64,000 nt of DNA from assembly GCA_017528205.1 (NCBI GenBank), contig JAFXPE010000004.1, positions 15,079 through 79,078 on the forward strand, given 5' to 3'. Below, in pieces: positions 17,239-32,909 of this stretch (positions are counted from its first letter, which is position 1; each line of letters starts with the position of its first letter). Under the pieces are notes generated by a model, which had not been told where the DNA came from, ran no database searches, and was given only the letters and a program-made list of their open reading frames with translations. Source of the DNA: Alphaproteobacteria bacterium (GTDB lineage Bacteria; Pseudomonadota; Alphaproteobacteria; RF32; CAG-239). Made by a program: the position numbers and the translations under genes.

Positions 17239-17658
17239 TTATGCTCCCCACTGCATCAGGAATTCTTTTTCGCAGGTATCGGGGTCGGTTTGGTCGGAAA
17301 TGGCGATAAATCCGTTTTGCTTATAAAACTCGACAGCGGATGCGTTCTTTTCATAAACCATCAGTTGCAGACGATGCTTTTGCTCCTTTACAAAATCCAG
17401 CAATTGCCGCCCTACTCCCAACCCTCGACAATCTTGCCGCACAAAAATGCCGGCGATAAAGTCGTCTTGTAAGCCGATAAAGCCCTTTATTTGCCCGTCT
17501 TCATAAACATAAACCGTGCTTTGCGGCAGAATTTTCTTCACAAAATCATAGTTTTTCCGCCAATATTCGGGCGCTATAAAGTCATGCGCCTGCAAATTGC
17601 CCTCGAGCCATATCTGCATTACCGTATCTAAATCGGCTATTTTGAGCGGTCGTATCAT
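17239..17658 (-). CDS. GNAT-family N-acetyltransferase
   Basis: GNAT motif A region ...GIFVRQDCRGLGVGRQLLDFV...; 139 aa. Confidence 0.75.
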   Translation of the reverse strand: MIRPLKIADLDTVMQIWLEGNLQAHDFIAPEYWRKNYDFVKKILPQSTVYVYEDGQIKGFIGLQDDFIAGIFVRQDCRGLGVGRQLLDFVKEQKHRLQLMVYEKNASAVEFYKQNGFIAISDQTDPDTCEKEFLMQWGA

Positions 17659-18098
17659 TTTGCGAGCCTCATATACAACAGCGGAAAAGGTCTGCCCTGT
17701 TCGTCCGTTGCGGTGCGTTTATAGGTTTTAAAGCCGAGATGTTCGTAAAATCCGACGGCCTGAGGATTTTGCTCATTTACAGTCACTTCGCTGATTTGAT
17801 ACTTTTGGGCGCCGTATTCCATCAGTTTGCGCCCTATTCCCTGCCCGATATACTGCGGGTCCAAAAACAACATTTCCAACCGGTGCTGTTCCACCCCCAT
17901 AAAGCCGAGATAATCGCCGTTGTTCTGCGCCACCACGAGATGCGCCACTCCTTTCAGCGCCTGCGGCACATAATTCTCAATTTCCGCGATGTCTTTGCCG
18001 GTTAAAAATGTATGCGTTTTGCTAACCGACCGCCGCCACAGAGCAGTCAGTTCCTTAATTACATCAGAGTTGCGATCTATAACATCAACAATTTCCAT
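17655..18098 (-). CDS. GNAT-family N-acetyltransferase (second, distinct paralog)
   Basis: ...LFLDPQYIGQGIGRKLMEYG... acetyl-CoA binding motif. It overlaps the downstream GNAT gene by 4 nt. Confidence 0.75.
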   Translation of the reverse strand: MEIVDVIDRNSDVIKELTALWRRSVSKTHTFLTGKDIAEIENYVPQALKGVAHLVVAQNNGDYLGFMGVEQHRLEMLFLDPQYIGQGIGRKLMEYGAQKYQISEVTVNEQNPQAVGFYEHLGFKTYKRTATDEQGRPFPLLYMRLAK

Positions 18099-18739
18099 TA
18101 CTTACATCTCTTTTTAATTTCGGCTTTGACTTTTTTCAAATCGCCGGAGGTCAAAAGCGGTATCAGTTCGTTGATTTCCTCAACGCTTTTATCCCACCAT
18201 TTGAATTTCAGTAGCAACTGTATCAATTCGTCATCAAATCTTTTGCGCACCGGTTTTGCCGGATTTCCGACCACAATCGTATATGGCTCGACATTGCTGC
18301 CGACCACACTGTTGGCACCGATTATTGCCCCATCGCCGATATGCACGCCGGGCAGAATTGTCACGTTTTGCCCTATCCACACGTCATTGCCGACAATCGT
18401 ATCGCCCTTAAGGGGTAAATCGGTCTCAGCCGGCGGCTCTTGTTCAAAATCTTCCATAATATAAAACGGAAACGTGGAAACGGCATTCATCTGATGATTG
18501 GCGCCGTTCATCACAAACTCAACCCCTGCCCCGATTTGGCAGAATTTGCCGATAATCAGCTTGTCGCCGATAAAATCATAGTGATGAGTGACGTGCTTTG
18601 CAAAATCAACATCGGCAAAATAGCTAAAATCCCCGACTATAATGTTCGGATTTTTCAGCGTCGGCTTGATATAGGTTACCGTTTTGATATTCGACACCGG
18701 AAAAATTGCATTCGGGTTAGGTTTCGTTGCCTTTGTCAT
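18098..18739 (-). CDS. Hexapeptide-repeat xenobiotic acetyltransferase (XAT family; Vat/CatB-like)
   Basis: Left-handed beta-helix hexapeptide repeats with a Vat/CatB-like N-terminus (...IKPTLKNPNIIVGDFSYFAD...GAGVEFVMNGANHQMNAVSTFPF...). The start was set to the internal ATG (MTKATKP), which overlaps the stop of the upstream kinase gene. Confidence 0.7.
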   Translation of the reverse strand: MTKATKPNPNAIFPVSNIKTVTYIKPTLKNPNIIVGDFSYFADVDFAKHVTHHYDFIGDKLIIGKFCQIGAGVEFVMNGANHQMNAVSTFPFYIMEDFEQEPPAETDLPLKGDTIVGNDVWIGQNVTILPGVHIGDGAIIGANSVVGSNVEPYTIVVGNPAKPVRKRFDDELIQLLLKFKWWDKSVEEINELIPLLTSGDLKKVKAEIKKRCK

Positions 18740-19254
18740 CAGAATTCTCCTATATCCAAGTTGTATTCTTCCTCTATCAAATGATACGGCAGTCCATGCT
18801 TTTGGCACTGTTGCAAAATGTGCTCGTTATCCTTTAGAGCCATATCTTGCGTAAAATCGCCATCATCCAGCCGCTTTTCGATAACGTTGGCATGGTTTTT
18901 GATGTCCGCAAAGCGATTTAAAATATAGTTTTGGCTCATAATCAGGCAAATGTATTTGATTTCCGCCAGATAATTTTCGCTAAAATCCTGCCGCCAAGCA
19001 AACGGAATATAACAGCCCTCAACGATTAGATTTTGCTTGTTTTCGATGGCGGTTTTAATCATTTCACGCACAATCGGCCACAAATAGTCCGTCAGCTTAT
19101 CATCATCAAGAGCGGTTAAGGCGGTCTGCTTGCTGCGGATCAGCCCCATTTTCAGCAAATCCAACGACAAGAGCGGAAAGTGATACTTTTCCAGCATTTT
19201 TTGTGCCAGCAAAGTCTTTCCCGTATGCGATGCCCCTGTGATTAAAATTATCAT
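18739..19254 (-). CDS. P-loop NTPase / small-molecule kinase-like protein
   Basis: An N-terminal Walker A (MIILITGASHTGKTLL). Its size and architecture resemble CPT/gluconate-kinase-like small kinases. It is first in a 4-gene overlapping operon with the XAT and GNAT genes. Confidence 0.5.
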   Translation of the reverse strand: MIILITGASHTGKTLLAQKMLEKYHFPLLSLDLLKMGLIRSKQTALTALDDDKLTDYLWPIVREMIKTAIENKQNLIVEGCYIPFAWRQDFSENYLAEIKYICLIMSQNYILNRFADIKNHANVIEKRLDDGDFTQDMALKDNEHILQQCQKHGLPYHLIEEEYNLDIGEF

Positions 19255-19343
19255 AAACCCTCACTTGTTAAAAGCGAGAATAAAACGTTTTTGGTTAAAA
19301 AGCAATATTTTCAAACGCTTTGTTTTTATCATGTTTTTACACC

Positions 19344-19994
19344 TCAGCGACTGACAAATGCTACGATTTCTTTTTGCAAGAGGCGGAACACATTGGCCAC
19401 CAGATATCCGTCGGCAATTGCGTGATTTAAGCGAACGCTCACCGGCATAACCAGTCTGCCGTTTTCTTCGCGATATCGTCCCCAGTTCACGATGGGCGCA
19501 AAGAACAAATAGCCGTCCGGCAACTCAATATTCAACGAATCATACGAAAGCCACGAAATGTATGAGGCATCAAACCAATTCGGATGATTTTCCATATCCA
19601 ACCCGTAATCACGCGTTTGCTTTGCCGTCTCCATATCTTTCAGCGCGCCGGCATAAAACGTGTCATAGTCCTCGTAATATTGCGTGTAAACCGGCGTACA
19701 GGTTTCCGTATCTTCATGAAATACATATTGCGTGGGGTTGACCATATCATAGCAGATAAGCTCGCCCGTCTGCCAAAGATAGCCCATGCGATAATCTTCA
19801 CGCGAATTCATTACTTTGGCAAGGATATACAGAAAATTCAAATAGAATTTCGAACTCGTCCGCTTTGACCAGGCTGCAAGCTCGGTCACATCTATTCTGG
19901 CAGTCATAGAAGTGGAGCATTTGCAGTCTTCCGAAAAGTGACGAAACACACCCTTGCGATAATACGTTTCTTTATCAATGACCTTGTAGTTCAT
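19344..19994 (-). CDS. cat: Chloramphenicol O-acetyltransferase, classic (type A) CAT fold
   Basis: Colinear similarity to CAT_I along the whole protein, including the catalytic-His region ...SVRLNHAIADGYLV... (compare MAIQVHHAVCDGFHV) and ...LFFAPIVNWGRY...; 216 aa. Confidence 0.8.
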   Translation of the reverse strand: MNYKVIDKETYYRKGVFRHFSEDCKCSTSMTARIDVTELAAWSKRTSSKFYLNFLYILAKVMNSREDYRMGYLWQTGELICYDMVNPTQYVFHEDTETCTPVYTQYYEDYDTFYAGALKDMETAKQTRDYGLDMENHPNWFDASYISWLSYDSLNIELPDGYLFFAPIVNWGRYREENGRLVMPVSVRLNHAIADGYLVANVFRLLQKEIVAFVSR

Positions 19995-21109: not shown

Positions 21110-22267
21110 ATGGATATTTGGGACGAAATTAAAAAACTGTCCGGCTACCAATCCGGTCACGGCGGAGTGGATAGTTACGGTGTTGACCACAGCGGATTTT
21201 CAACGCGTGATGAGTTGGAATATCAAAGCGCACGATTAGCCAGAGAAAATCAACTGGCGGAAGGTTTTGCTAAGCAAGGAATTGCCGAAGAAAACTATCC
21301 GCAGTTCGGCACAAACTTTTGGGAAGGAACGCCTGAAAATAACTACGGCTTCGGCACTTCAAACATTAAGCAAAATATCGAAAATGTTACAAATCAGTTG
21401 AATAACAGCGGATTTGGTGGCGGAGTGAATAATAGCGGATTTAACGCCAGCGCAAATAACGGACAAGTCACTACAAATTCCGACTATACGGTCAACACCG
21501 AAAGTCTAGTCGGCAAACCGAGCAGTTATTTTCAGAATAATAGTGCAAGCAATACTTTGGGAGGCAATGCAAGTGGAGCATTGAATCAAAATGGTAGCGG
21601 TAACAGTATCAACTATGATAATTATGCAATGCGACAGGACTTAGAAAATAATATCAAACGAGAACAGGAAAGAGCGCAGCGACAAAGCTTAATACCTCCT
21701 TCTAACAATTCTCAGATAACGCCTATTCCTTCAGGAAAACCACTAACTTCGCAAGAAGCGTCCTATATGTTCACACCGACACACCCTGATTATGGCCAAA
21801 TAGGTTCATTGGAATTTGATGGGCAAAATTTGGTTTGGTTGCAAAATGGTCAACCGGTAAAGTATTATCCGGCACAATCCGGTCATAATGATTATCAAAG
21901 CGCTAAATATACCAATGTCTCTAATGAGGGGCCAATACCAGAAGGTGATTATCAGCTTAATCAAGGAACCGGACAGGATTATGAGGAAAGTTTATGGTAT
22001 AAAATCAATAGGAACATGTGGCCTCGTCCTATCAGAAAGAATTGGACGGTCACGCCTGCTGGTTGGGGACATCAACGTATTCCTATCCAACCATTACCAA
22101 GCACGAACACTTTAGGGCGGCATAGTATGTATGTTCATGGAGGAGATAACGGATTTGGCTCTGCGGGCTGTATAGATTTAGAAAGAGGTATGCCTAATTT
22201 CTACGACGACTGGCTAAAATATAACGGGACTTTACCTCTTAAAGTCAAATACAAGAAAGGTTGGTAA
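21110..22267 (+). CDS. DUF2778/Tlde1-like L,D-transpeptidase-fold protein (putative peptidoglycan-targeting toxin) with a Gly/Asn/Ser-rich N-terminal region
   Basis: The C-terminal ~130 aa contain ...GPIPEGDYQL... and the catalytic-type motif ...YVHGGDNGFGSAGCIDLE... (H-G-G...G-S-x-G-C) of the YkuD/Tlde1 family. The N-terminal 250 aa are low complexity. There is no signal peptide. A strong RBS (aggagg) precedes the start. Confidence 0.55.
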   Translation: MDIWDEIKKLSGYQSGHGGVDSYGVDHSGFSTRDELEYQSARLARENQLAEGFAKQGIAEENYPQFGTNFWEGTPENNYGFGTSNIKQNIENVTNQLNNSGFGGGVNNSGFNASANNGQVTTNSDYTVNTESLVGKPSSYFQNNSASNTLGGNASGALNQNGSGNSINYDNYAMRQDLENNIKREQERAQRQSLIPPSNNSQITPIPSGKPLTSQEASYMFTPTHPDYGQIGSLEFDGQNLVWLQNGQPVKYYPAQSGHNDYQSAKYTNVSNEGPIPEGDYQLNQGTGQDYEESLWYKINRNMWPRPIRKNWTVTPAGWGHQRIPIQPLPSTNTLGRHSMYVHGGDNGFGSAGCIDLERGMPNFYDDWLKYNGTLPLKVKYKKGW

Positions 22268-22279
22268 TTAAAATAATAG

Positions 22280-22315
22280 GCAAGAGTTGAAATATACTCT
22301 TGCTCTTTTTTATTT
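22280..22315 (+). terminator. Rho-independent terminator (gcaagagt-loop-actcttgc followed by a T-run)
   Basis: An 8-bp stem and 8-nt loop followed by tcttttttattt, immediately after the toxin-like gene stop. Confidence 0.5.
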
Positions 22316-22357
22316 ACACTGTATTATATTCTTAATTCAACTTAAAATGGTGCAATT

Positions 22358-22714
22358 ATGCTTAAAAATTTACTTCTGATGATGAAAAATAATAAAGCAA
22401 GAATATTTCCGTTTGCGGTCAGTTTATACCTATATGCCTTGTATTCTCGGTGTATATATCTGTTGGGTAAAGATATAATAAAGCGAATTAATGAGGATTA
22501 TTACAGTTATCTGTTGCATAAATGCCGGTGGTTGTGGGCAAACGAAAATGTTCGCAACGAAGCGGCTCTCGTTGTGTTGTTATCGGCCGTGCTTTTGCTT
22601 TCTTTTTATTTGCTCTATCGCAGAAGTTATTATTTTTACGCCGTAATATTGGCGCCGATATATATCTTTTTGTTTGTTACGGTTTGCAGCGCAATACTAG
22701 TACGTTGGTTTTAA
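22358..22714 (+). CDS. Small polytopic membrane protein (candidate immunity protein)
   Basis: 118 aa with 3-4 hydrophobic helices and no recognisable family. It lies directly downstream of the Tlde1-like gene. Confidence 0.4.
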   Translation: MLKNLLLMMKNNKARIFPFAVSLYLYALYSRCIYLLGKDIIKRINEDYYSYLLHKCRWLWANENVRNEAALVVLLSAVLLLSFYLLYRRSYYFYAVILAPIYIFLFVTVCSAILVRWF

Positions 22715-22723
22715 GGAGAAAAA

Positions 22724-23080
22724 ATGTCGGTCAAAGATTTATGTATTAAAATCATCAGAAACCGCAACAGAATAGCGGCTCATTTGTGTTTTTGGGGAAT
22801 GCTGTGTTTCAATTTATTATGTTTGAGTTTGACAATTTATACTATGTTCACCTATGACGGCGGAACGGAAGATGCGAAAGTTTATTATGAAATTCGTGAT
22901 ATAAATATGGCACACGATACATTTTCCGGTTTTATGTTGCGGGAATATTTATTAGGATTATTGTTTGCATTTCCTTTGCTTATATCCTTGCTGTTTGTGC
23001 GGAAAATTACATTAAATGCGGTTATGTTACAACTCTTGCCGATTTTAGTTATGCTCGGTCAAATAGTGTTTTTTGATTAA
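22724..23080 (+). CDS. Small polytopic membrane protein (candidate immunity protein)
   Basis: 118 aa and hydrophobic. An RBS (aggag) precedes the start. It is unrelated in sequence to the preceding one. Confidence 0.4.
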   Translation: MSVKDLCIKIIRNRNRIAAHLCFWGMLCFNLLCLSLTIYTMFTYDGGTEDAKVYYEIRDINMAHDTFSGFMLREYLLGLLFAFPLLISLLFVRKITLNAVMLQLLPILVMLGQIVFFD

Positions 23081-23104
23081 ATTCATAAACAACGGAGTTG
23101 TAAA

Positions 23105-23677
23105 ATGGTAACAAAAGATAGAATATATATGACATTTAAATATCTCGGGTGTTTTCTTGCATGCAATATTTTATTGTGGGCCGTGATATGGCTCATTGCC
23201 GAATTAGACCAAGACAAACTTGAGCTGATTGATTGTTTTGCGTTTGAATACGGATACATTACAAAAACACTCAGTTATCAAAGTTATTTGCAAGGAGCTT
23301 GCACCTACCCTCAAATATGCACATGTGCCGTAAATGCCGAATGGATATTGTTTTTCTATATTTGGGCTTTGCCGATTTTTGTTTTTTATGAAGTTTTTCG
23401 GCGCAAAATCATTCTGCAACAATATCAATACTTGTGCGTTTTGGGCGAAATTGCTTTTGGGGTGGTTATATGTTTTTTATGCCAAGACAATGCACCCTTT
23501 TTATGGTTTCCGCTCGGTAATACTTACAAAATCATCGCACCGATGGCGATTATTATGCTTGCATTACACAGCTTGCCGCCCAAAGTGCTTAAAGTGCTGT
23601 CTATAATTATCGGCACGATTTACGGGTTATATTTTGGGTTTTGTATAGCAATGATTATTCTTAACTTTTTCCATTAA
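23105..23677 (+). CDS. Polytopic membrane protein, 190 aa
   Basis: Multiple predicted TM helices with Cys/aromatic-rich loops; no family assignable. Confidence 0.45.
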   Translation: MVTKDRIYMTFKYLGCFLACNILLWAVIWLIAELDQDKLELIDCFAFEYGYITKTLSYQSYLQGACTYPQICTCAVNAEWILFFYIWALPIFVFYEVFRRKIILQQYQYLCVLGEIAFGVVICFLCQDNAPFLWFPLGNTYKIIAPMAIIMLALHSLPPKVLKVLSIIIGTIYGLYFGFCIAMIILNFFH

Positions 23678-24613: not shown

Positions 24614-25126
24614 TCATTCTTGCGGCTCATTTTCATCATATTTTGGAGCTTCCGCCGCGGCCAGCAATTCATAAAAATACTCAATGTCCGCCTTGTTTAA
24701 CCCTGCCTCACACATAATGCTGTAATAGCCGGTTTCGGCGGCAAAGTTCACGACTTTATAGCTGTTATCTTCGCCCCTAACGCTGAATTTTACGCCGTTA
24801 TCCAGCGTAACCGTTGTGTTGACCGGATATTGATTGTAGTCGCCGGAAATGTCGATAATGCCGTTTTCATCGGCCTTGCCGGCAAAGTCTAAGGCCTTGC
24901 GGACAATAACCTTGCGCCCGTCATTCAGCGGAAAGCGCAACTCCAGCATGCCCTCCATCGCTCGAACCGTGTAGTTTTCAACCTTCAGCGGAAAGTCAAA
25001 TCCGGCTTTTTGCGCACCGCAACCGATGTCGTTTCCGCAATCAATCCACGGATTTATCATACTTTGCGCCGAATAAGCACTTAAAACGCCTATCGCCAAA
25101 CAAACTATACAAACAACTTTTTTCAT
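24614..25126 (-). CDS. Secreted protein / lipoprotein, unknown function
   Basis: N-terminal signal peptide (MKKVVCIVCLAIGVLSAYSAQS). No family recognised. Confidence 0.45.
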   Translation of the reverse strand: MKKVVCIVCLAIGVLSAYSAQSMINPWIDCGNDIGCGAQKAGFDFPLKVENYTVRAMEGMLELRFPLNDGRKVIVRKALDFAGKADENGIIDISGDYNQYPVNTTVTLDNGVKFSVRGEDNSYKVVNFAAETGYYSIMCEAGLNKADIEYFYELLAAAEAPKYDENEPQE

Positions 25127-25162: not shown

Positions 25163-26374
25163 TTAATTTTTCGGGAAAAATACCGAGTGCAACAAATTTA
25201 CGTCTTCCGGACTTCTGGTGATTTTTATTTTGCCCGATTTATAAATGTGGCAAACCACAAACGGAGCATATCCCCAAAATGTGGAATAAACATCGGTATA
25301 AGCACCAGCACCGCCGATTATTATATCATCGCCGATTTGTACCGGCTGACTGATATGTGTATTTTCAACAATGTTATTGGCACCGCTGGTGATGCCGTCC
25401 GTAATTCCGATATTTTCGCCCCCATCGCTCGGAAGCGGGTGCAAAAGTTCATAACGCGCGTTTTGGTTCGGAATAAGAACATTGGTGCCGATGTCCGTAA
25501 TCAGCCATTTTTTGTTTTTTATCTGTTTAATATCAATCACTTTACCCAAAACATATCCGGCGGAAGCGGATAAAAAACGCCCCGGTTCCAGCACCAATTT
25601 CTGAGGCGAGAACAGCTTGGCAAATTCATCTGCCACGGCGGTAAATAACTTCTTCAGTTTATCTTCACGGTTTGCGGAATAAACCTCAATGCCGCCGCCC
25701 AAGTCAATTCTTTGCGGCATAATAGCGTATTTTTGCTTTATGTCGGCCAAATGCTCTCGCAAAATTTTCATTGCCGCGATATAGGGTTCGGAACACAACT
25801 CGTTGATTGTAAAATGCATATGAACAATATCCCATTTTGCCCGTTTTTCATTTTGAATGAGCGCGATAAACTCTTTATAAACCTCTGAATCGACATAATT
25901 TCCCAGTTTATTTTTTTGGTTTGAATAAGGAGTGGCAACCTGCAATCCGCCGGCATCAAAACGCAACCTTATTCCCAATTGACAGCTTGCTTTAGGGTGT
26001 GCGGCCAAATAGTTTTTGACAATGCCCAAATCGCGCAATGTATCCACAATAAGCGTTGTGTTCTTTTGCTTTAGAGCCTTCATCAAACATGCCTCCGAAC
26101 GCCCTAAACCGTTGAGAATGATTTTTTTGAATTTGGCTCTCTGCGCCAAATCAAGCTCAAGCTCCGACATAACTTCCGCACCCAAACCGCGCCGCGCAAA
26201 ATAGCGCAACAAGTTGAGGTTATAACAACTCTTGACCGCAAAATAAATATCGGAATTTTTTAAATATTCGGATATCAGAGCAACTGCTTTTTCCGCCTCA
26301 TTCTCATCATAGAACATAACCGGTGTATTCAAGTTATGAGCAACAAGAAAGTTTTTTAAGGCCGAAATGTTCAT
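25163..26374 (-). CDS. PLP-dependent decarboxylase, fold type III (Orn/DAP/Arg decarboxylase family 2)
   Basis: PLP-lysine motif YFAVKSCYNLNLL, glycine-rich phosphate loop IDLGGGIEV, and the C-terminal EPGRFLSASAG motif. It overlaps the upstream Dcd-like gene by 4 nt. Confidence 0.75.
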   Translation of the reverse strand: MNISALKNFLVAHNLNTPVMFYDENEAEKAVALISEYLKNSDIYFAVKSCYNLNLLRYFARRGLGAEVMSELELDLAQRAKFKKIILNGLGRSEACLMKALKQKNTTLIVDTLRDLGIVKNYLAAHPKASCQLGIRLRFDAGGLQVATPYSNQKNKLGNYVDSEVYKEFIALIQNEKRAKWDIVHMHFTINELCSEPYIAAMKILREHLADIKQKYAIMPQRIDLGGGIEVYSANREDKLKKLFTAVADEFAKLFSPQKLVLEPGRFLSASAGYVLGKVIDIKQIKNKKWLITDIGTNVLIPNQNARYELLHPLPSDGGENIGITDGITSGANNIVENTHISQPVQIGDDIIIGGAGAYTDVYSTFWGYAPFVVCHIYKSGKIKITRSPEDVNLLHSVFFPKN

Positions 26375-26889
26375 TTAAAATCCTCACTTGTTTTTGAAAT
26401 TTGCGGCCCATGGCTGTGTTGATATTTGCCGTTGTACAACACAATTTCTCCCTTGGGAACCCAAAAGCTCACCTGAGCAATTTTCATACGCGGATATACA
26501 ATAACCGGCAAGGTTGAATATAATTGCAAGGTTAAGTTGCCCACCGAGCCGATATCAATTAAATCGGCCGTGATATGCACAAACAATCCCGAGCGCGCCG
26601 TTCCGGATTTTGCGTGCAATATCGGCACAAAATGTTCGCTGCCGATTTCTTCTACGGTGCTCCCCAAATAAAATTCGTTTTTTTCAATCAAAAAGCCTTC
26701 CGGAGGAATATCGATAATTTCAAAATTGGGCTTTTTCTTAGGATCCAGCACTTCGTCGGTATAGCGTATCAGTTTATCGGCCAGACAAACGTCATAAGAG
26801 TTGGTTGTGACCTGTTCTTCGTTAAACGGCGAAATAGTGATGTTGCCGTTTAAGGTTTCTTTGATTATTTCATTACCGCTCAAAATCAT
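26371..26889 (-). CDS. dCTP deaminase/dUTPase-fold protein, paralog 1 (predicted catalytic Glu replaced by Gln)
   Basis: Colinear with Dcd: MILSGNEIIKETLNGNITISPF...SYDVCL... and ...ARSGLFVHITADLIDIGSVGNLTLQLYS... (compare Dcd [26 protein letters not shown]). It is 172 aa. Confidence 0.7.
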   Translation of the reverse strand: MILSGNEIIKETLNGNITISPFNEEQVTTNSYDVCLADKLIRYTDEVLDPKKKPNFEIIDIPPEGFLIEKNEFYLGSTVEEIGSEHFVPILHAKSGTARSGLFVHITADLIDIGSVGNLTLQLYSTLPVIVYPRMKIAQVSFWVPKGEIVLYNGKYQHSHGPQISKTSEDFK

Positions 26890-27392
26890 AGCTTTTCAAC
26901 CTTCAATTGCTGTGTCGGGAGGTTATATTTGGCATAAGTAAAAGCATGCTCATATATTTCTCCGTAATTATCCCAAAACGTTACCTGCCCTATAATCATT
27001 CCCGCATACAACCGGATAGGTTTTGCGGCAACAAGTTCCAAGGTCCATTGGTGGAAAGACTTTGTATGCCCCAAATTTGCCGAAACTTGCAAAAACAGTC
27101 CCAAACGTCCCATAGAGCTACGCCCGATTAAAGACATGGCATATTTTTTGCTACCGATAATTTCTTTGGTGTGTCCTAAATATAAAACATGAGGCTTGAG
27201 AACATAACCTTCGGGCGGAATAGTCACATCTTCGAAAACCGGCTGACCGTCTTGCATTTTTTGAAAAACTTTGAGCATACTCCCCAAGCGATAATTATAA
27301 CTGTTGGGGTTGACTTGATTTTCATAAAAAGGTACCAGCGATATATTACCTTTTTTTTGCTCAGAAATTATTGCTTTTCCGGTCAGAATCAT
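26886..27392 (-). CDS. dCTP deaminase/dUTPase-fold protein, paralog 2 (Glu retained: ...WTLELV...)
   Basis: MILTGKAIISEQKKGNISLVPF...SYNYRLG... and ...GRLGLFLQVSANLGHTKSFHQWTLELV...; 168 aa. It overlaps both neighbours by 1-4 nt. Confidence 0.7.
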   Translation of the reverse strand: MILTGKAIISEQKKGNISLVPFYENQVNPNSYNYRLGSMLKVFQKMQDGQPVFEDVTIPPEGYVLKPHVLYLGHTKEIIGSKKYAMSLIGRSSMGRLGLFLQVSANLGHTKSFHQWTLELVAAKPIRLYAGMIIGQVTFWDNYGEIYEHAFTYAKYNLPTQQLKVEKL

Positions 27393-28198
27393 CAGAACAA
27401 TTCCACAAAACGATTAGGATAAACATTTTTACGATATCTTAAAACCAAAACGGCATAAGATTGATACGGACGCAATTTATTAGACATTTCTTTGATTTTA
27501 TACAATCTATCAAACATTGCCTGTTTCAGCGCAATATCGGTTATATTTCTGATTTTACAAGCACGGTCGATGGTGCAGCGGCAATAATATTGCAACTCGT
27601 CTTCCGTTTCCGGATACAAGTCATTCCGGTCCTCATAAATAATTTCCAGCTTGTTGAACATGGACATAATGTCTTTATATCCGGCCGTAGTTGGAGATAT
27701 ACCGAATACTGTCTTAAATTCTTCAATCAACTCGCCTGGTATCGGTTGTTTGATATAAAACGGAGAAGCCAATAAATATCCGCCGTCTTCGATAAATTCC
27801 ACCGTTTTTTTTATGGCTTCCTGCGGATTGGCAAAAAATTGATATCCTGCTCCTATGATAACATGTGAGAATTTTTCATCTAACTTGAGTTTGGTGCCGT
27901 CGGCAACAAAATAATCTATTTTTGCATTCGGCGCATAGTGCTGCAAATTATAATTTGCCATTTCTATTGCCTCAGACGATAAGTCAAACGCCTTGCCCGA
28001 GCATCCGGTAAGCGTGGCAAGTTCGCGAGATTGAAAACCGGTGGTGCAGGCAAATTGCAAAATTCGCGAATTGGCATTCATACGCGAAAAAGTTGCCCAT
28101 TTCGACAGAGTAACATACGATCCGGGTAAAACATTCCATTGATTAATATATCCGACAAAATCAGGATAAGACATTTCATTCAATTGCCTAATATCCAT
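27392..28198 (-). CDS. Class I SAM-dependent methyltransferase
   Basis: Motif I-like region ...VLQFACTTGFQSRELATLTGCSGKAFDLS... within a Rossmann-like pattern. The start was set at the internal ATG (MDIRQL) preceded by a GGGGAGA RBS. Confidence 0.6.
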   Translation of the reverse strand: MDIRQLNEMSYPDFVGYINQWNVLPGSYVTLSKWATFSRMNANSRILQFACTTGFQSRELATLTGCSGKAFDLSSEAIEMANYNLQHYAPNAKIDYFVADGTKLKLDEKFSHVIIGAGYQFFANPQEAIKKTVEFIEDGGYLLASPFYIKQPIPGELIEEFKTVFGISPTTAGYKDIMSMFNKLEIIYEDRNDLYPETEDELQYYCRCTIDRACKIRNITDIALKQAMFDRLYKIKEMSNKLRPYQSYAVLVLRYRKNVYPNRFVELF

Positions 28199-28342
28199 CT
28201 TTTTCTCCCCGTAAAAAAGCAAATTTACAATATTTCATCAGCACGTCTTATACCATTCATCATCGCAATTTTCAAGAATTTTTTCTTGATTTATTTAATT
28301 ATCCGTGATAGCTTGTTTTGTAATGTATTTTGGGGATAAAAT

Positions 28343-29284
28343 ATGCACAAAATTCAAAGAGTAAATTTCAATATTTTTCCTGAGAAACTGTTTGCGTTTG
28401 CAAAGTTTGACGAATTTTTGGTTGACGATACTTATTTATACCTCAGAACCTACGGGCACGAAGGAAAATATGAATTTGACAGCGCCATTTCTCCTTTTGA
28501 AAATATGATACAAGCCACAATACGCTTTATAAATTCGGTTCTGACGCCGGAGCGAATGCAATTGTTTGCCCAAACCGTAAATCCGTCGGCCATAATTTTA
28601 CCGGTTCACGGTTTTCATTATATCGGTTGTTCAAACAAAGTTTATACCTTTGAAACCGATAACACCAGCTCAAATTTAATGACCGTATTGACCACCATCA
28701 AACTTCATCATGCGCTGGGCATGGATTATTCTTTCAGCTGTCGACAGTTGGAAAAAGTTTCGCGCAATGCCTCGTCTTTAATTCATCGCATTGCCAACCC
28801 TACTCCGCTTGATGCCGATATTGTTAAGGGCAAAGAATATATTGCCTTTGATGACCATATCCATTCCGGCAGCACGGTGGCAAATTTGCTGGGAGTTATT
28901 GCGGCCAAGCAAGGCCAATGCAACACTATAATGTGTTTGGCCACCAATCCCATTGTTAAAAAACTGAAGTTGCGGCAATCCACATTGGATAAAATCAGAA
29001 CAAATCCGCTGTATTCTTCTTTAGAAAGCAAGTGGGCGGACTTATTCGGGTTTGATTTTGCGGGCTTAACCGAGGTTGAAGCGAAGTTACTGCTGAATAA
29101 CTACGTTAAAAAGAATATTGACGTTATCGCCGAAATCAAAAAATATAATCCGGCCGAATATGTCCCGACTTACGATAAATCCCTGTGGCCAGTTCTTACG
29201 GCCAAAGAAACTTATAACAGCCTGAGCGAACTCGGAATGCCCGGCTATGGAATTAAACTTATCAATACGGCACAAAAAATATGA
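28343..29284 (+). CDS. Hypothetical protein with a type-I phosphoribosyltransferase-like PRPP-binding motif
   Basis: ...KEYIAFDDHIHSGSTVANLLG... matches the hydrophobic-x4-D-D-x-x-x-S/T-G-x-T PRPP loop of type I PRTases. The rest of the protein is not classifiable by eye. Confidence 0.35.
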   Translation: MHKIQRVNFNIFPEKLFAFAKFDEFLVDDTYLYLRTYGHEGKYEFDSAISPFENMIQATIRFINSVLTPERMQLFAQTVNPSAIILPVHGFHYIGCSNKVYTFETDNTSSNLMTVLTTIKLHHALGMDYSFSCRQLEKVSRNASSLIHRIANPTPLDADIVKGKEYIAFDDHIHSGSTVANLLGVIAAKQGQCNTIMCLATNPIVKKLKLRQSTLDKIRTNPLYSSLESKWADLFGFDFAGLTEVEAKLLLNNYVKKNIDVIAEIKKYNPAEYVPTYDKSLWPVLTAKETYNSLSELGMPGYGIKLINTAQKI

Positions 29285-30057
29285 ATCACCGGCAACACAT
29301 AACCGATATTTTGAATGCTTACAGAAAGAAAAGTATTGTTCCCGACAGCAATTTTTCGGTTGCTTGCGTTATTGAAGACACCAACCGCAATCTTTACCCC
29401 GGCGCCAACATAGAATTTATCGACCGCACGCTCGGAATATGCGCCGAAGGAGCCGCTATTTGCAAAATGCTTGCGGAGCGCGGCTATCAGGTTATTCAAA
29501 ATATTTGGCTGATGGGAGGTGACGCTCAACCGGCCGCGGATATGCCGGAAGATATGCTTTTTCCTTGCGGCATCTGTCTGCAACGGCTGGGTGAATTGGC
29601 GGCAAAAGATGCGAAAGTAAAGATAATATCCCCTATCGATAATCATCTCACCGATTTCAATTTGAGTGATTTGTTACCTCATATCAATAAGTTTACCGAC
29701 TATTTTGATTTTAAACCTTATGATTTATGCGGAGAGCTTGATTTTAACGATATCCCCTCCGCGTTGCAAATGCTTAAGGCCAGAAGTTTTATTCCGGACC
29801 GTAAAAAAAACGAGGCGGTGATTTTGCAAACTCAAGGCAATCACTTTTGTTATGGCGTATATTTTGCAACCTGTTGCTACAAGGCCGATATTCCCGCCAT
29901 AAATATGGCCATGTATAATTATTTGTTGTCGGATTATGCGACGGAAAAAATCTCGCGGGTATATTATTCTGCCGAAAATTCTTTGTTGCAAATTCATCCG
30001 GAATTTTCTAAACTCTTAAAAGATGCGGTTTTGACGGAGATAAAAATTGAAAACTGA
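29281..30057 (+). CDS. Cytidine/deoxycytidylate-deaminase-fold (CDA) zinc enzyme, two-domain architecture
   Basis: Zinc-ligand motifs C-A-E (...RTLGICAEGAAICKM...) and P-C-x-x-C (...LFPCGICLQRLGEL...) in the N-terminal ~125 aa. A second degenerate CDA-like half follows, as in dimeric two-domain Cdd. It overlaps the upstream gene by 4 nt. Confidence 0.65.
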   Translation: MNHRQHITDILNAYRKKSIVPDSNFSVACVIEDTNRNLYPGANIEFIDRTLGICAEGAAICKMLAERGYQVIQNIWLMGGDAQPAADMPEDMLFPCGICLQRLGELAAKDAKVKIISPIDNHLTDFNLSDLLPHINKFTDYFDFKPYDLCGELDFNDIPSALQMLKARSFIPDRKKNEAVILQTQGNHFCYGVYFATCCYKADIPAINMAMYNYLLSDYATEKISRVYYSAENSLLQIHPEFSKLLKDAVLTEIKIEN

Positions 30058-30496
30058 GTGCAATGACATTTATTCTTTGATTTTATTTAAGCCCGATGTT
30101 TATTCGCGAAACCTCAGCGATGCCATTTTGCAAGAATTTCATAACAACGGTTTGGAAGTCGTTTATCATAAAAAAATGCAACTGACCGAAAAAATGTTAC
30201 GCGCCTATCAACCTTTGCTCAACGAGCCCGACGATTTTGGCGAAACGGCATGGCAGTATGACATTATAAACGCATATACCCGCGTGCCGACCGATGTTTT
30301 TTTGTTAAAAGGGCCGAATGCCCTTGAAAAAACCAATGAAATCAAACAATATTTGCGCGATAAGTATATTCCCGGCGAAAATAAGTATATCATCTATAAT
30401 TTGCTGCATACGGCTGATGATGCGGCTGATTTGGAACTTAATGTCGGTGTGCTTATTCCGGAAAAGCTGGATTTGCTTAAAAAAAGGAGAGATTGA
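30047..30496 (+). CDS. Divergent nucleoside-diphosphate-kinase (NDK)-fold protein
   Basis: ...LILFKPDVYSRNLSDAILQEF...GLEVV... (NDK: [25 protein letters not shown].LV) and an active-site-His-like motif ...YNLLHTADDAADLE... (NDK: NIIHGSDSVESAEKE). Confidence 0.55.
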   Translation: MKTECNDIYSLILFKPDVYSRNLSDAILQEFHNNGLEVVYHKKMQLTEKMLRAYQPLLNEPDDFGETAWQYDIINAYTRVPTDVFLLKGPNALEKTNEIKQYLRDKYIPGENKYIIYNLLHTADDAADLELNVGVLIPEKLDLLKKRRD

Positions 30497-30497
30497 G

Positions 30498-31505
30498 ATG
30501 GAAAATTACGAGAAAATCAAAGAAATAAGAGACAGTTTTCTGTCGTTTTATATGATGGCCGGATATAAGTGTGTTGATCCGGCGCCGCTCATTCCCGAAA
30601 ATGACGACACCATTTATTTTTCAAATTCCGCCATTGTGCCGTTCAAAAAATATTTGCAAACCGACTGTCCGAGACTGACCGTTGCGCAAAAGTGTTTACG
30701 CTTTAGGGGCGGCAAAAATTTGTATGATTTGAACGAGCACCCTTATGTGCCTTATTTTAATATGGTCGCCTCAATAACCAACGCCAAACATTGTCAAGAA
30801 GTTGCGGAATTAACGCAGGATTTTTTGTTAAACTCGTTGAATATTCCGGAAAATAAATTATATGCCGATGTTTCTTCTCAAGACCCGGTTATTATCAAAA
30901 ATTTTGAAAAATATTTTGATTTGCACGTTGATAAATTGGAGCAAGACGAATATCGTTGGGGTTTCGGCATAAACGGGGTACACGGCAGAGGGTTGTGCTT
31001 TTCCATGCGTTACGGCGACAACAAAACCGGAGATTTGGGGCAAATTATTCAAATTAACTCCGACAACAACAAAACCAACTATGCCTTTGGGTTCGGAATT
31101 GAAAAGTTTATAAAGATGTCCGAAAATCTTGACCATTTTTACGAAGCCACCTCTATTTACGAAATTACAAAAGATATCCAAGGGCCTTTGGCTTGGCGCT
31201 ATATGAGTTCGTTGTCGTCTTTGTGTTATTTATACAGTCAGAATATTGATTTTGAGGACCCGAAGCATAAAAAACAAAATAAAATTGTCTCGTCATTATT
31301 GCATCAGGTGGCGGTTGTTTCCGAGCTTATGGACATTCCGCTTTCTAAAATTAACGCCGATGCCTACAAATTTTCGATGGTTGAGCTGAACAAAAAAACA
31401 AACGTAGATGCCCTGTTGCGTGATATAAACAACAGAAAGCAAACAACGCGGCACGACAAAGAGTTTCAGCAAATCAGCCGACAATTATCGAGCAAGACGT
31501 ATTAG
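30498..31505 (+). CDS. Stand-alone alanyl-tRNA-synthetase catalytic-core paralog (class II aaRS-like amino-acid ligase, ~335 aa; no tRNA-binding, editing or C-Ala domains)
   Basis: Colinear with the AlaRS N-terminus: [44 protein letters not shown] ~ [63 protein letters not shown] ~ [36 protein letters not shown] ~ W..[26 protein letters not shown] ~ TGMGLERIAAVL. The start is set at MENYEKI, with an aaggaga RBS and a 1-nt gap after the NDK-like stop. Confidence 0.65.
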   Translation: [335 protein letters not shown]

Positions 31506-31748: not shown

Positions 31749-32165
31749 ATGAAGGAAATCAATATGTATAAATATTTAATTGCTCTTTTTGTTTGTTGTT
31801 TTGCGTTCAACGCCTCGGCCGCCACTTCGGAGATTTTGCAAAAATCGCAAAGTTCTTGGAACAACGCCCCGATTAAGCAGATGAATTTAACCGAGCCGGA
31901 AGTGACAGTTGTGCGTATTCAAATTCCGCAAGGCGAAAAATTGCCGCTGCATCAGCACCCGATTTTGAACGTCGGCTATCTGACCAAGGGCGAGTTGACC
32001 GTGCATACCGAAGCCGGCGATGTTTTGATTTTGAAGGCCGGAGATCCGATTATCGAGGTTATCGACACTTGGCACTACGGCGAAAGCACCGGCAATGAAG
32101 ATGCCGAAATCGTGGTGGTTTATGTGGGCAATAAGGGCGATACCTTTACCGAAACCAAAGAATAG
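31749..32165 (+). CDS. Secreted cupin-domain protein
   Basis: A signal peptide, then ...PQGEKLPLHQHPILNVGYLTKGELTVHTEAGDVLILKAGDPI..., which is a cupin two-His motif pattern. Confidence 0.5.
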   Translation: MKEINMYKYLIALFVCCFAFNASAATSEILQKSQSSWNNAPIKQMNLTEPEVTVVRIQIPQGEKLPLHQHPILNVGYLTKGELTVHTEAGDVLILKAGDPIIEVIDTWHYGESTGNEDAEIVVVYVGNKGDTFTETKE

Positions 32166-32207
32166 CCCTACCTTATTCTGCGCGCATAAATTTTGAGGAA
32201 TATCCAA

Positions 32208-32909
32208 ATGAAGACAATTGTTGCCATCGGCGGCGGAGAAACCGGTCGTGTCATAAAATCAGAAGACGGTACGGAATATCAAACGCCGCTGGAAACTACA
32301 CCTATCGACAAATTGATTATTCGGTTGGCTAACAAGCCGCACCCAAAGGTTTTGTTTATTGGTACGGCAACGCACGATAAACCCGCGTATCCGGAGTTTA
32401 TACGCCGGCAATATGTTGGAAATTTGGGCTGTTCCTCTCTTGAAACTTTGTGTATAGAAACCGAACACCTGTCTTTTGACGAGATAAGAAACAAGGTGCT
32501 TGCCGCTGATATAATTTATGTCGGCGGGGGCGATACGACGCATATGCTGAAAGTGTGGAAAGAGCAGCAACTCGACGTGATTTTGCGCGAGGCTTACGAA
32601 AAAGGTGTTATTTTGGCGGGCATATCCGCCGGAGCCATTTGTTGGTTTGAATGGTATGATAATATGGATGACATCGACACCATTGATGATTTGGCGTTGG
32701 TGCCGGGGCTCGGTTTTGTAAAGGAATTCGGCGTTCCGCACTATAATTGGCTCAGCAAAGAAGAGCGAGACAAAATAAATTTGCTGCTGAAGGCAAAGAA
32801 TATTTCCGGCATTGCCATAGACGATTGCGCGGCCGTTGTTTTTAGGGATAATAACATCGAGTTTATCTCTGATGCCGATTATGGCTCAACCGTCAGATAC
32901 ATTCCGTAA
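32208..32909 (+). CDS. Peptidase S51 (dipeptidase E / cyanophycinase-like) family protein
   Basis: MKTIVAIGGGE...VLFIGTATHD...IIYVGGGDTTHMLKVWKE...ILAGISAGAICWFE... (the Ser-nucleophile GxSAG context). The start was set at ATG 32208, with a gaggaa RBS. Confidence 0.65.
   Translation: MKTIVAIGGGETGRVIKSEDGTEYQTPLETTPIDKLIIRLANKPHPKVLFIGTATHDKPAYPEFIRRQYVGNLGCSSLETLCIETEHLSFDEIRNKVLAADIIYVGGGDTTHMLKVWKEQQLDVILREAYEKGVILAGISAGAICWFEWYDNMDDIDTIDDLALVPGLGFVKEFGVPHYNWLSKEERDKINLLLKAKNISGIAIDDCAAVVFRDNNIEFISDADYGSTVRYIP

Follow-up and report, generated by a model that had tools for sequence, protein, structure and literature searches.

Paired Glu-type and Gln-type dCTP deaminase-fold proteins encoded in putative microcin-C-like gene clusters

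The gene pair and its neighbours in the window

The window (the whole 64-kb stretch of alphaproteobacterial DNA analysed here) carries on its reverse strand two adjacent genes for proteins of the Dcd fold: the ‘E-type’ subunit DcdA (26886..27392, 168 aa) and the ‘Q-type’ subunit DcdB (26371..26889, 172 aa). Both ORFs are exactly as described in an earlier sequence-only reading of this DNA, and they overlap by ATGA. The junctions with the flanking genes, TGATG between a methyltransferase gene and dcdA and ATGA between dcdB and a PLP-dependent decarboxylase gene, are likewise coupled.

Both proteins match the Pfam DCD family PF22769 (E = 2e-27 for DcdA and 1e-33 for DcdB). AF2 models (pLDDT 86 for DcdA and 95 for DcdB) confirmed the dUTPase-like β-barrel of the DCD fold, which had been proposed for both from sequence; the models are monomers and support the fold only, being the same for a heterotrimer and a homotrimer. 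The best structural matches were the bifunctional DCD-DUT enzymes of B. halodurans and M. tuberculosis (Foldseek TM against 4xjc of 0.86 for DcdA and 0.93 for DcdB). DcdA and DcdB share 37% identity (E = 5e-46) and each is nearer to the other than to E. coli Dcd. With the TIGR02274 model (cutoff 92.8 bits) DcdA scores 54.2 bits, under the cutoff, and DcdB 98.4 bits, barely over it, though without the catalytic Glu. No canonical dcd or dut was found by tblastn in the 64-kb window; other, weak Dcd-like matches, at ∼60.9, 62.8 and 48.4 kb, were rejected as chance matches since these loci encode GlyQ, MscL and AdhE.

The gene coupled to dcdA (27392..28222, reverse strand) encodes a class I SAM-dependent transferase with 28% identity to MccD of E. 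coli along its full length (249 aa, E = 2e-33). The gene coupled to dcdB (25163..26374, reverse strand) encodes a member of the Orn/DAP/Arg family of PLP-dependent decarboxylases, which shares 26% identity with the decarboxylase domain at the N-terminus of MccE (E = 6e-17); LysA is equally close, so that the MccE half of the MccD/MccE match is the weaker one. The chemistry of MccD and MccE has been described (PMC8323819).

The genes on the forward strand start with one for a 313-aa protein (28343..29284), divergently transcribed and kept beside the operon in the closest relative. The family matches of this protein were absent or sub-threshold, as were those of the 357-, 249- and 220-aa neighbour proteins of other loci. 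It is followed by genes for a two-domain zinc protein of the cytidine deaminase (CDA) fold (29281..30057, 258 aa), a truncated AlaRS-like protein with the class IIc catalytic core only (30318..31505, 395 aa), a cupin-domain protein whose membership of the cluster is uncertain (31749..32165) and an S51-family peptidase (32193..32909, Pfam E = 9e-39). The S51 family also contains MccG, which confers immunity to microcin C (PMC9239234), so that the peptidase is a candidate self-immunity gene product and would fill the role that S66/MccF-like peptidases may have in related clusters. No MFS transporter of the MccC type adjoins the operon, and a tblastn search of the 64-kb window with E. coli MccB gave no match (E ≤ 0.01).

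Depletion of dCTP in phage defence was considered and rejected. No credible PADLOC match was found for DcdA, DcdB and seven neighbours, the sole match (a Cas8 model to the PLP-dependent decarboxylase, E = 8.5e-4) being weak and implausible, and the genomic contexts are biosynthetic-looking rather than defensive.

Active-site residues and their conservation

Active sites of the dUTPase/Dcd fold form at the boundary of two subunits, of which one contributes the base/sugar pocket and its neighbour the Mg/phosphate motifs. To our knowledge, all characterised enzymes of the dUTPase superfamily are homo-oligomers. We established residue equivalences with HMMER and hhalign against solved Dcd and DCD-DUT structures and E. 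coli Dcd, whose reference sequence is 100% identical to that of 1xs1. The equivalent of the catalytic Glu138 of E. coli is Glu119 in DcdA (WTLELV) and Gln122 in DcdB (LTLQLY). The sequence-only reading had placed Glu in one copy and Gln in the other by hand, and the profile alignment agrees with it; Glu was found in DcdA only. The Ser-containing loop that it had noticed in both copies aligns as well: Ser92/Arg96 of DcdA (GRSSMGRLG) and Ser95/Arg99 of DcdB (AKSGTARSG) correspond to Ser111/Arg115 of E. coli, and this Ser/Arg pair is invariant within both families. Motifs 2 and 4 are retained by each protein.

The other positions distinguish the two proteins in the opposite sense. The equivalent of E. 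coli Asp128 is Asp112 (IDIG) in DcdB and His109 in DcdA, where it belongs to the pocket motif SANLGHTKSFHQWTLE and to an invariant pocket of the family's own, LGHT.S.H.WTLE. Asn stands in DcdA in place of the motif-1 Asp. The canonical KYQ..G lid is missing from DcdA, and its C-terminus does not align and carries a different conserved motif, Y.G.Y...PQES. DcdB keeps the motif-1 Asp33, KSG..R (Ser95/Arg99), Asp112 and Gln139, and its lid YNGKYQHSHGP aligns with that of E. coli (Y..KYxxQxG). The sugar-stacking aromatic residue (IDPGW/F) is replaced by Ser112 in DcdA and by Ser115 in the DcdB of the window; some actinobacterial DcdB orthologues keep Phe at this site, and most lineages have Ser. 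By these equivalences the Glu-bearing DcdA is the less canonical copy and the residue losses of the two proteins are reciprocal. The proposal of a competent subunit beside an altered one stands, therefore, only in part: DcdB is altered (Gln122), while DcdA, given His109 and the lack of a canonical lid and of the aromatic residue, is not plainly competent. Having lost the Asp128 equivalent, the aromatic residue and the lid, DcdA may be no dCTP deaminase at all.

The substitution in DcdB is not confined to the window. Gln occupies the Glu138 site in all 120 best DcdB homologues and, in 80 species-level genome loci, DcdB has Gln or Met (Met in three loci) and never Glu, which means that DcdB cannot be classified as a dCTP deaminase. 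Such constancy greatly exceeds what chance would give. The 76 DcdA copies found among the 80 loci all have Glu (76/76). In an alignment of 96 DcdB sequences from many phyla Gln122 is invariant, with Met only in the few genome orthologues, as are D33, S95, R99, H105, D112, T120, Q139 and G154-K-Y156; the invariant positions of DcdA are N33, R91-S92-S93, R96, H109, H114, W116-T-L-E119 and Q136. The Gln is a family trait of DcdB, not a one-off loss, and could have a purpose other than a passive loss of deamination.

These data bear on the simplest reading of the pair, in which one copy would be a decaying dcd duplicate and the change of Glu to Gln a loss without function. Its sole support is the catalytic residue missing from one copy. 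Homologues of each protein number in the thousands, at 55–65% identity across bacterial and archaeal phyla, all ORFs are intact, and the mean column identity across phyla (65% and 53% in the two families) indicates strong constraint. Together with the invariance of Gln122 in DcdB and of Glu119 in DcdA, this family-wide conservation effectively refutes the idea of decay and of an incidental Glu-to-Gln change.

Known Dcd and DCD-DUT enzymes have the same fold and length as DcdA and DcdB (TM 0.84–0.93). They share the Ser/Arg of motif 2, the Gln of motif 4, the Asp128 equivalent and the KYQ lid with DcdB and the Glu138 equivalent with DcdA; the pocket LGHT.S.H.W of DcdA is new. The known enzymes assemble from identical subunits, each with both Glu and Asp, into homotrimers or hexamers, whereas here these residues are split over paired gene products. 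A close parallel to DcdB is found among archaeal Dcd-type dUTPases (P. furiosus P45, 9ln0; T. pacificus, 8y1w; S. tokodaii, 2zdc), which have the Dcd fold with the Glu replaced by Met. Met occupies the site in the monofunctional dUTPases 9ln0 and 8y1w, the latter solved with dUMP, and GNLTLMLYN of P45 compares directly with GNLTLQLYS of DcdB. The R/K-S loop, the motif-3 Asp and the Y.G.YQ.S lid are kept in both groups. Unlike DcdB, with its predominant Ser and obligatory E-type partner, the archaeal proteins form homotrimers from the product of a single gene and retain the aromatic residue (VDPGW). Judged by sequence, only DcdB and not DcdA resembles a Dcd-type monofunctional dUTPase. A split of functions between the copies, also proposed earlier, is thus credible: DcdB has every dUTPase-type element and no deaminase Glu, as in the archaeal enzymes.

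Co-occurrence, fusions and genomic contexts

Among the 80 species-level genome loci, a DcdA gene was found alongside DcdB in 76; two of the loci without DcdA are cut by a contig edge, giving 76 of 78 testable loci. In 73 loci the DcdA gene lies within 105 bp of DcdB. The near-constant co-presence and adjacency, combined with translational coupling, indicate that DcdA and DcdB almost certainly function together. Pairwise A-A and B-B distances correlate across loci (r = 0.82–0.89); since the mirror-tree r for A-B is only slightly above the values that either of the two gives with the MccD-like gene, the correlation speaks for co-inheritance and not for contact.

A conserved family of natural single-chain fusions with two B-like domains followed by an A-like domain was also found (P0312, P0391 and P0392, 463–466 aa). 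Conservation in these chains is limited to KSGTAR of domain 1 and, in domain 3, to the A pocket ADLGHTGVRHRWTLEI. The retention of just one B phosphate loop and one A pocket suggests a heterotrimer whose active sites are composite. The fused forms are located among housekeeping genes. In another architecture an A-like gene is paired with a Q-type DCD domain fused to PPDK_N, and Q-type DCD domains occur fused to PPDK_N/PEP-utilizer modules. The glutamine kinase that acts in the phosphoramidate pathway of Campylobacter belongs to this enzyme class. Other multi-domain DCD proteins (the two-domain 2r9q of A. tumefaciens and the three-domain P0243 and P0244) show that Dcd-fold domains bearing complementary motifs are able to build pseudo-oligomers with fewer complete sites; they are covalent fusions, while in the window DcdA and DcdB are separate chains, both with intact but different pockets.

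Carriers of the pair are very diverse, from Patescibacteria and DPANN archaea to bacteria with an intracellular or predatory life and classic antibiotic producers. Unlike known Dcd and DCD-DUT enzymes it lies mostly in accessory, horizontally scattered clusters and not in contexts of dTTP synthesis. In 65 of the 80 genomes it is accompanied by homologues of MccD, MccE or MccF, truncated aaRS-like proteins, additional copies of LeuRS or LysRS, or further biosynthetic genes of an accessory kind. MccD-like proteins are encoded in 47 loci, S66/MccF-like peptidases in 33 and truncated aaRS-like proteins in 53; 14 loci have an additional full-length LeuRS or class I LysRS. The S66 peptidases of related loci are 27–33% identical to MccF (33% for the copy in a locus of the candidate phyla radiation, CPR), CDA-fold genes recur beside the pair, as in the window, and one Streptomyces cluster encodes a HIT protein. 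No MccB was detected by tblastn across 92 related loci (E ≤ 1e-5). In minimal CPR clusters only DcdA, DcdB and an aaRS-like protein remain for scaffold building, and in glycosyltransferase-type clusters the pair occurs with metallophosphoesterases instead of MccD.

About 15 of the 80 loci have none of the listed neighbour families (e.g. in Rickettsiales, Bdellovibrionales and Cardinium); around the stand-alone pairs of Rickettsiales and Bdellovibrionales there was no conserved gene that was informative. Such loci and the fusions sited among housekeeping genes mean that the function of the pair does not depend on antibiotic-like clusters.

The clusters resemble the microcin C system in that MccD (transfer of an acp group from SAM), the MccE N-domain and MccF (S66) or MccG-type S51 homologues accompany the pair; they differ from it in having the Dcd pair and truncated aaRS-like ligases instead of MccB, a ThiF-like adenylyltransferase. 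A second parallel is the ascamycin cluster, where the truncated AlaRS-like enzyme AcmF acylates the NH2 of a nucleoside 5′-sulfamate to build an aminoacyl-AMP mimic (PMC12945691). The substrate of AcmF is a sulfamate made by unrelated Streptomyces enzymes, and the likeness to the window lies in the type of truncated AlaRS-like protein found in a nucleoside-antibiotic cluster. By analogy with these systems the clusters look like makers of microcin-C-like aminoacyl-nucleotide antibiotics, and the extra aaRS copies fit with an aaRS inhibitor as the product. Neither the Dcd pair nor its cluster was found described in a full-text search of the open-access literature.

Possible chemistry and assembly of the pair

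We give about an even chance to the reading that DcdA and DcdB make up a hetero-oligomeric enzyme of the DCD-DUT type supplying the nucleotide scaffold of an aminoacyl-nucleotide antibiotic. Here the hetero-oligomer, the substrate and product and the order of the pathway are what we infer; the fold, the residue equivalences, the family-wide invariance, the synteny, the fusions and the homology of the neighbouring genes were observed directly. The co-translated proteins would be subunits of one enzyme, probably based on a heterotrimer, and each would have given up the half of an ancestral bifunctional dCTP deaminase-dUTPase that the other keeps. The Glu-bearing pocket of DcdA would provide deaminase chemistry; DcdB, having phosphate-binding donor elements, a lid and an Asp pocket without Glu, would provide diphosphatase or nucleotide-binding chemistry, a role suggested by its match to the archaeal Dcd-type dUTPases. 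From a cytosine (deoxy)nucleoside triphosphate the pair would make a 5′-monophosphoryl product of a pyrimidine nucleoside, with release of PPi and ammonia, likely the same net chemistry as that of DCD-DUT ((d)CTP to 5′-monophosphate, PPi and NH3). To this scaffold of the window cluster the truncated AlaRS-like ligase would attach an amino acid, and the MccD-like and MccE-like proteins would alkylate its phosphate by adding an aminopropyl group, while protection of the producer would fall to the S51 peptidase. The pathway would end, with neither MccA nor MccB taking part, in a microcin-C-like aminoacyl-nucleotide that inhibits an aminoacyl-tRNA synthetase.

The favoured reading has its costs. 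A plain conversion of (d)CTP to (d)UMP duplicates primary metabolism and leaves unexplained why the pair is the most conserved part of the clusters; it also leaves unexplained how a stable aminoacyl-nucleotide originates without MccB. An N-acyl phosphoramidate is implied by the homologues of MccD, MccF, S51 and HIT proteins. Perhaps cytosine is even retained in the product, as hinted by CDA-fold deaminases and carbamoyltransferases in several clusters.

It is worth considering, as a possibility which we still regard as rather unlikely, that the pair forms a P-N bond and is a nucleoside 5′-phosphoramidate synthase. Release of NH3 from C4 and in-line substitution at the α-phosphate with loss of PPi, both of them DCD-DUT chemistries, would be combined such that ammonia is captured in place of water, with (d)UMP-NH2 or NMP-NH2 as the product. 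His109 would replace the water-activating Asp in the DcdA pocket, and the aaRS-like ligase would acylate the NH2 as AcmF does with a sulfamate NH2, yielding an N-acyl phosphoramidate, a warhead of the processed microcin C type. This would account for the company of homologues of MccD, the N-terminal part of MccE, MccF, S51/MccG and, in one Streptomyces cluster, a HIT protein, enzymes which all act on N-acyl phosphoramidate nucleotides, and for the constant absence of MccB, the sole known P-N-forming enzyme of the microcin C system. It agrees with the minimal CPR clusters, in which scaffold building is left to DcdA, DcdB and the aaRS-like protein, with the AcmF precedent of a 5′-X-NH2 nucleoside acylated by a truncated AlaRS-like enzyme, with the invariant change of Asp to His at the residue positioning the nucleophile in dUTPases and with the fusions of Q-type DCD domains to PPDK_N/PEP-utilizer modules. 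However, the argument is entirely inferential and aminolysis would be unprecedented for the dUTPase/Dcd fold; the B-B-A fusions and some pairs occur in housekeeping or stand-alone contexts with no obvious use for a phosphoramidate, the glycosyltransferase-type clusters carry metallophosphoesterases and not MccD, and the invariant Asp112/Gln122 pocket of DcdB is given no role. The broader claim that the pair is the heterotrimeric 5′-phosphoramidate scaffold enzyme of a large, horizontally spread, MccB-independent and non-ribosomal class of microcin-C-like antibiotics, with ammonia from cytosine or free NH3 delivered to the α-phosphate and aaRS-like ligases then making aminoacyl-adenylate mimics, we rate as unlikely.

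The remaining readings differ in how the subunits share the work. DcdB might be a pseudoenzyme that lends its phosphate loops and lid to the DcdA pocket, where all the chemistry would take place, or an allosteric nucleotide sensor. The B-type pockets are indeed decayed in the B-B-A fusions, where conservation is confined to the B phosphate loop and the A pocket, a change of Glu to Gln is classic for inactivating a deaminase, and Dcd-family enzymes are regulated allosterically via the same sites (PMC4827122). Nevertheless, in two-gene systems His105, Asp112, Thr120 and Gln122 of DcdB are invariant in 96 sequences from many phyla, which argues for a working second pocket, and DcdB is more conserved towards canonical DCD-DUT than DcdA; we find this reading quite doubtful. 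More improbable still are separate homotrimers acting in sequence or independently, for instance a deaminase A3 and a dUTPase-like B3 with a ‘house-cleaning’ task of clearing the resulting dUTP or analogue. All Dcd and dUTPase enzymes characterised so far form homotrimers or hexamers, each of the two proteins has motifs 2 and 4, and operon partners are able to co-evolve without contact. But a site built from DcdA only would have no motif-1 Asp, Asp128 equivalent or canonical lid, A-type and B-type domains assemble as one trimer-like unit in the B-B-A chains, and the near-absolute adjacency of the genes and their ATGA coupling suggest stoichiometric co-assembly.

If the heteromeric enzyme exists as proposed, it would be the first natural heteromeric member of the dUTPase superfamily, with deaminase-type and diphosphatase-type residues on two obligate partners, and a clear-cut example from nature of subfunctionalisation at an active site that subunits share. 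Database annotation is affected as well: B-type proteins are named ‘dCTP deaminase’ despite the missing catalytic Glu, in thousands of database entries. The pair is a genome-mining marker for a widespread, undescribed family of clusters with tailoring and immunity genes of the microcin C type, truncated aaRS-like ligases, extra aaRS copies and no MccB, a make-up that suggests a new way of making aaRS inhibitors of the aminoacyl-nucleotide type. The family reaches the ultra-small episymbionts of the CPR and DPANN groups.

Glu-type and Gln-type subunits

The genes for DcdA (A; 26886..27392, minus strand, 168 aa) and DcdB (B; 26371..26889, minus strand, 172 aa) overlap at an ATGA junction. Both products match the Pfam family PF22769, 'dCTP deaminase-like' (E-values 2e-27 and 1e-33, respectively). 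They belong to an operon of four translationally coupled genes, the other two encoding a methyltransferase homologous to MccD (27392..28222) and a PLP-dependent decarboxylase (25163..26374). A 170-aa protein with a signal-peptide-like N-terminus is encoded 36 bp downstream of the decarboxylase gene (24614..25126, minus strand); it matches no family and is not conserved in the cluster of the closest relative.

A and B share 37% identity (hhalign E 5e-46), while each is only 28–32% identical to E. coli dCTP deaminase (Dcd). Residue equivalences to E. coli Dcd (reference sequence 100% identical to 1xs1) were derived from hhalign alignment of family profiles and also from phmmer comparison with PDB sequences. 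In the profile alignment Glu138 of E. coli Dcd corresponds to Glu119 of A and Gln122 of B, which bears out the sequence-only reading of a Glu in one copy and a Gln in the other at the catalytic position; phmmer placed QWTLEL of A and GNLTLQL of B opposite GHITLEL of the M. tuberculosis protein. The substrate-loop serine claimed for both copies was found as well (Ser92 in A and Ser95 in B, equivalent to Ser111), and Arg115 corresponds to Arg96 and Arg99. The equivalent of Asp128 is His109 in A and Asp112 in B; the C-terminal lid aligns with YNGKYQHSHGP in B and has no aligned counterpart in A. The same reading had taken A as the competent copy. The Glu is indeed there, but by the TIGR02274 score (54 bits, below the 92.8 cutoff, versus 98.4 bits for B) A is the less canonical of the two.

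Among 5.8 billion proteins we found 1,940 homologues of B and 3,882 of A, with identity typically 55–65% across phyla. All of the 120 best B homologues have Gln at the Glu site, inside the motif HxTADLIDIGSxGxxT[LF]QL. Residues D33, S95, R99, H105, D112, T120, Q122, Q139 and G154-K-Y156 are invariant in a 96-sequence alignment of B; N33, R91-S-S93, R96, Q102, L107-G-H109, H114, W116-T-L-E119 and Q136 are invariant in a 104-sequence alignment of A. The losses are reciprocal: motif 1 has Asp in B (NSYD) and Asn in A (NSYN); B retains both the motif-3 Asp and the canonical KYQ lid, which A lacks; and the catalytic Glu is present in A and absent from B. Decay of one copy is ruled out by these conservation data.

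The AF2 models (pLDDT 95 and pTM 0.89 for B; pLDDT 86 and pTM 0.83 for A) have as best PDB matches the bifunctional dCTP deaminase-dUTPases (DCD-DUTs) of B. halodurans and M. tuberculosis, with TM scores of 0.93 (B) and 0.86 (A); we found no solved structure from either subfamily. P45 (9ln0) and the Dut of T. pacificus (8y1w, a structure with dUMP), both archaeal dUTPases, have the Dcd fold with Met at the Glu position (GNLTLMLYN versus GQITLELFN in B. halodurans) and keep the loop R-S-S as well as the Asp and the lid Y.G.YQGS. Apart from having Gln in place of Met, B is composed like them. Given this likeness to Glu-less dUTPases, the simplest reading is that the two proteins would share the roles of a DCD-DUT by subfunctionalisation, with diphosphatase activity or nucleotide binding in B and deaminase-type chemistry in A.

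Pairing, hosts and natural fusions

A scan with one genome per species produced 80 B-carrying loci. An A-type gene was present in 76, within 105 bp of B in 73 of those 76; A precedes B in 65 loci (one of them divergently oriented) and follows it in 11. Of the remaining loci among the 80, two end at a contig edge and one of the other two has a tandem A-like plus B copy. Across the 80 loci the Glu site is always Glu in A; in B it is Gln, or Met in three loci, and never Glu. The A–A and B–B distance matrices are correlated (r = 0.82–0.89).

Hosts of the pair are scattered. The closest relatives of the window are MAGs of rumen and gut Alphaproteobacteria (95% and 82% amino-acid identity in B); other hosts are Patescibacteria, Saccharibacteria, DPANN archaea, Streptomyces and other actinomycetes, Serratia, Erwinia, Photorhabdus, Pseudomonas batumici, Burkholderia lata, Bordetella tumbae, Enterococcus caccae, Cardinium, Parachlamydia, Rickettsiales and Bdellovibrionales.

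Active sites of the dUTPase/Dcd superfamily are clefts between subunits (PMC4827122). Exhaustive profile search detected natural fusions, including three homologous proteins (P0312, P0391 and P0392; 463–466 aa) whose three DCD domains score B-like, B-like and A-like; P0391 and P0392 are 77% and 69% identical to P0312. Domain 1 of all three keeps the B-type phosphate loop HNKSGTARQG and the motif-1 Asp, domain 3 keeps the A-type pocket ADLGHTGVRHRWTLEI and the tail QY.G...SGAQES, and the remaining pockets and loops are decayed. Such a pattern would be expected of a B2A trimer in covalent form whose only complete site combines the A pocket with the B donor. P0287, a relative with two domains, combines a donor domain (GRSSTGRLG) with a pocket domain (LGHTG..HW.LE), and in another architecture a Q-type DCD and a SAM methyltransferase form a single protein. 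At locus L103 (42..3594; proteins P0249 and P0252) a P-loop kinase and an A-like DCD are followed by a Gln-type DCD fused to PPDK_N / PEP-utilizer domains; in this further architecture of the Glu/Gln pair the PPDK_N part is of the pyruvate-phosphate-dikinase ATP-binding type and the PEP-utilizer is a mobile domain. The logic of P0287 and of the PPDK_N- and methyltransferase-fused architectures is the same as that of the B-B-A proteins. Housekeeping genes surround both the fused B-B-A forms and the two-domain ones.

Two metagenomic proteins from AT-rich organisms, P0243 and P0244 (532 and 549 aa), are single chains with three DCD domains each, covalent pseudo-trimers with a Glu pocket and lid in only one domain and a GRSS.GR loop in another. 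No relationship to the A/B family proper is apparent.

Gene neighbourhood and proposed function

The window methyltransferase is 28% identical to E. coli MccD over its full length (E 2e-33), and its best plasmid matches are mccD genes within canonical mccBCDE-F operons. The decarboxylase matches the MccE N-terminal domain (E 6e-17), with an equally good match to LysA. Divergent from the operon are genes for a 313-aa protein of no assigned family, a two-domain CDA-fold protein, a truncated AlaRS-like protein, a cupin and an S51 peptidase. MccB homologues were found neither in the window nor at any of 92 related loci.

Neighbours at the 80 genome loci include MccD-like proteins (47 loci), S66 / MccF-like proteins (33), PLP decarboxylases (20), truncated AlaRS-, LysRS/AspRS- or PheS-like proteins (53) and an extra full-length LeuRS or class I LysRS (14). 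Compact clusters of the candidate phyla radiation (CPR) have the order S66, decarboxylase, MccD-like, A, B, LysRS-like. One PheS-like group is NCBIfam NF051887, 'PheS-related mystery ligase SrmL', a named but uncharacterised system that co-occurs with the pair: at L007 (10324..11705, minus strand) a 371-aa protein (NF051887, 396 bits) and an 89-aa partner ORF flank the Dcd-pair cluster, as they do in L009, L037, L038, L052, L054 and L078, from CPR and other loci. Other variants combine A/B with glycosyltransferases, PIG-L, MurA-/MurG-like enzymes, TauD, radical SAM enzymes, metallophosphoesterases, HIT, NUDIX, CDA-fold deaminases or carbamoyltransferases. About 15 of the 80 loci, e.g. those of Rickettsiales and Cardinium, have no recognisable partner genes. 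On the linear plasmid pFRL6 of Streptomyces sp. F12 (L097, 6029..15421) a MazG-like pyrophosphohydrolase and a P-loop kinase lie on one side of the pair; on the opposite side are a cytidine deaminase, a methyltransferase, a UTP-glucose-1-phosphate uridylyltransferase, a radical SAM protein, a glycosyltransferase and a HAD hydrolase. This layout is reminiscent of nucleotide or DNA hypermodification cassettes, not of aaRS-inhibitor clusters.

Elsewhere in the window, a single 4,205-aa ORF (1739..14356, minus strand) without Pfam match at E <= 0.001 encodes a giant protein and adjoins an SBF-family transporter gene; a 237-aa protein (16162..16875, minus strand) matches Pfam Bundlin, the bundle-forming pilus major subunit. 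The acetyltransferase genes lined up at 17239..19994 (minus strand) encode a GNAT protein, a hexapeptide-repeat transferase and a member of the chloramphenicol-acetyltransferase family (Pfam CAT, E 9e-45); this islet, a few kb away from the cluster, may serve resistance or detoxification. At 21110..23677 (plus strand) the gene for a 385-aa protein with matches to YkuD / Tlde1 (L,D-transpeptidase-like toxin) domains precedes three ORFs that match no family, two of 118 aa and one of 190 aa, a layout that resembles effector plus immunity genes.

The best-supported model, to which we give about an even chance, is that A and B assemble into a hetero-oligomer in which the phosphate-binding motifs of B would complete the Glu pocket of A, while the Asp/Gln pocket of B would serve dUTPase-type chemistry or nucleotide binding; every step beyond the fold, the residues, synteny, the fusions and neighbour homology is one that we infer. 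The substrate of the complex would be a cytosine (deoxy)nucleoside triphosphate, and its product a 5'-monophosphoryl pyrimidine nucleotide. Aminoacylation by the window AlaRS-like ligase would follow, a step proposed on the precedent of AcmF, which resembles a truncated AlaRS and acylates the NH2 group on a nucleoside 5'-sulfamate (PMC12945691). The MccD-like and MccE-like enzymes together would next add an aminopropyl group to the product, by the chemistry described for MccD/MccE (PMC8323819), and the producer would be protected by the S51 peptidase; microcin C immunity through peptidases of the S51 family (MccG) has been published (PMC9239234). A more novel rival, which we consider rather improbable, has the A/B pair itself making the P–N bond, with ammonia captured at the alpha-phosphate and His109 replacing the water-activating Asp; it is suggested by the Mcc-type partners of the clusters, all of which act on N-acyl phosphoramidates, together with the lack of MccB. 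Lesser rivals are that B is catalytically silent, or that A and B form separate homotrimers.

Databases label both A and B as dCTP or deoxycytidine deaminase, PADLOC gave no credible match, and no publication on the A/B pair or on comparable MccB-less clusters turned up in our literature search. Neither the fold nor the chemistries are new; what we rate as new is the putative obligate heteromeric Glu/Gln arrangement and its cluster family.
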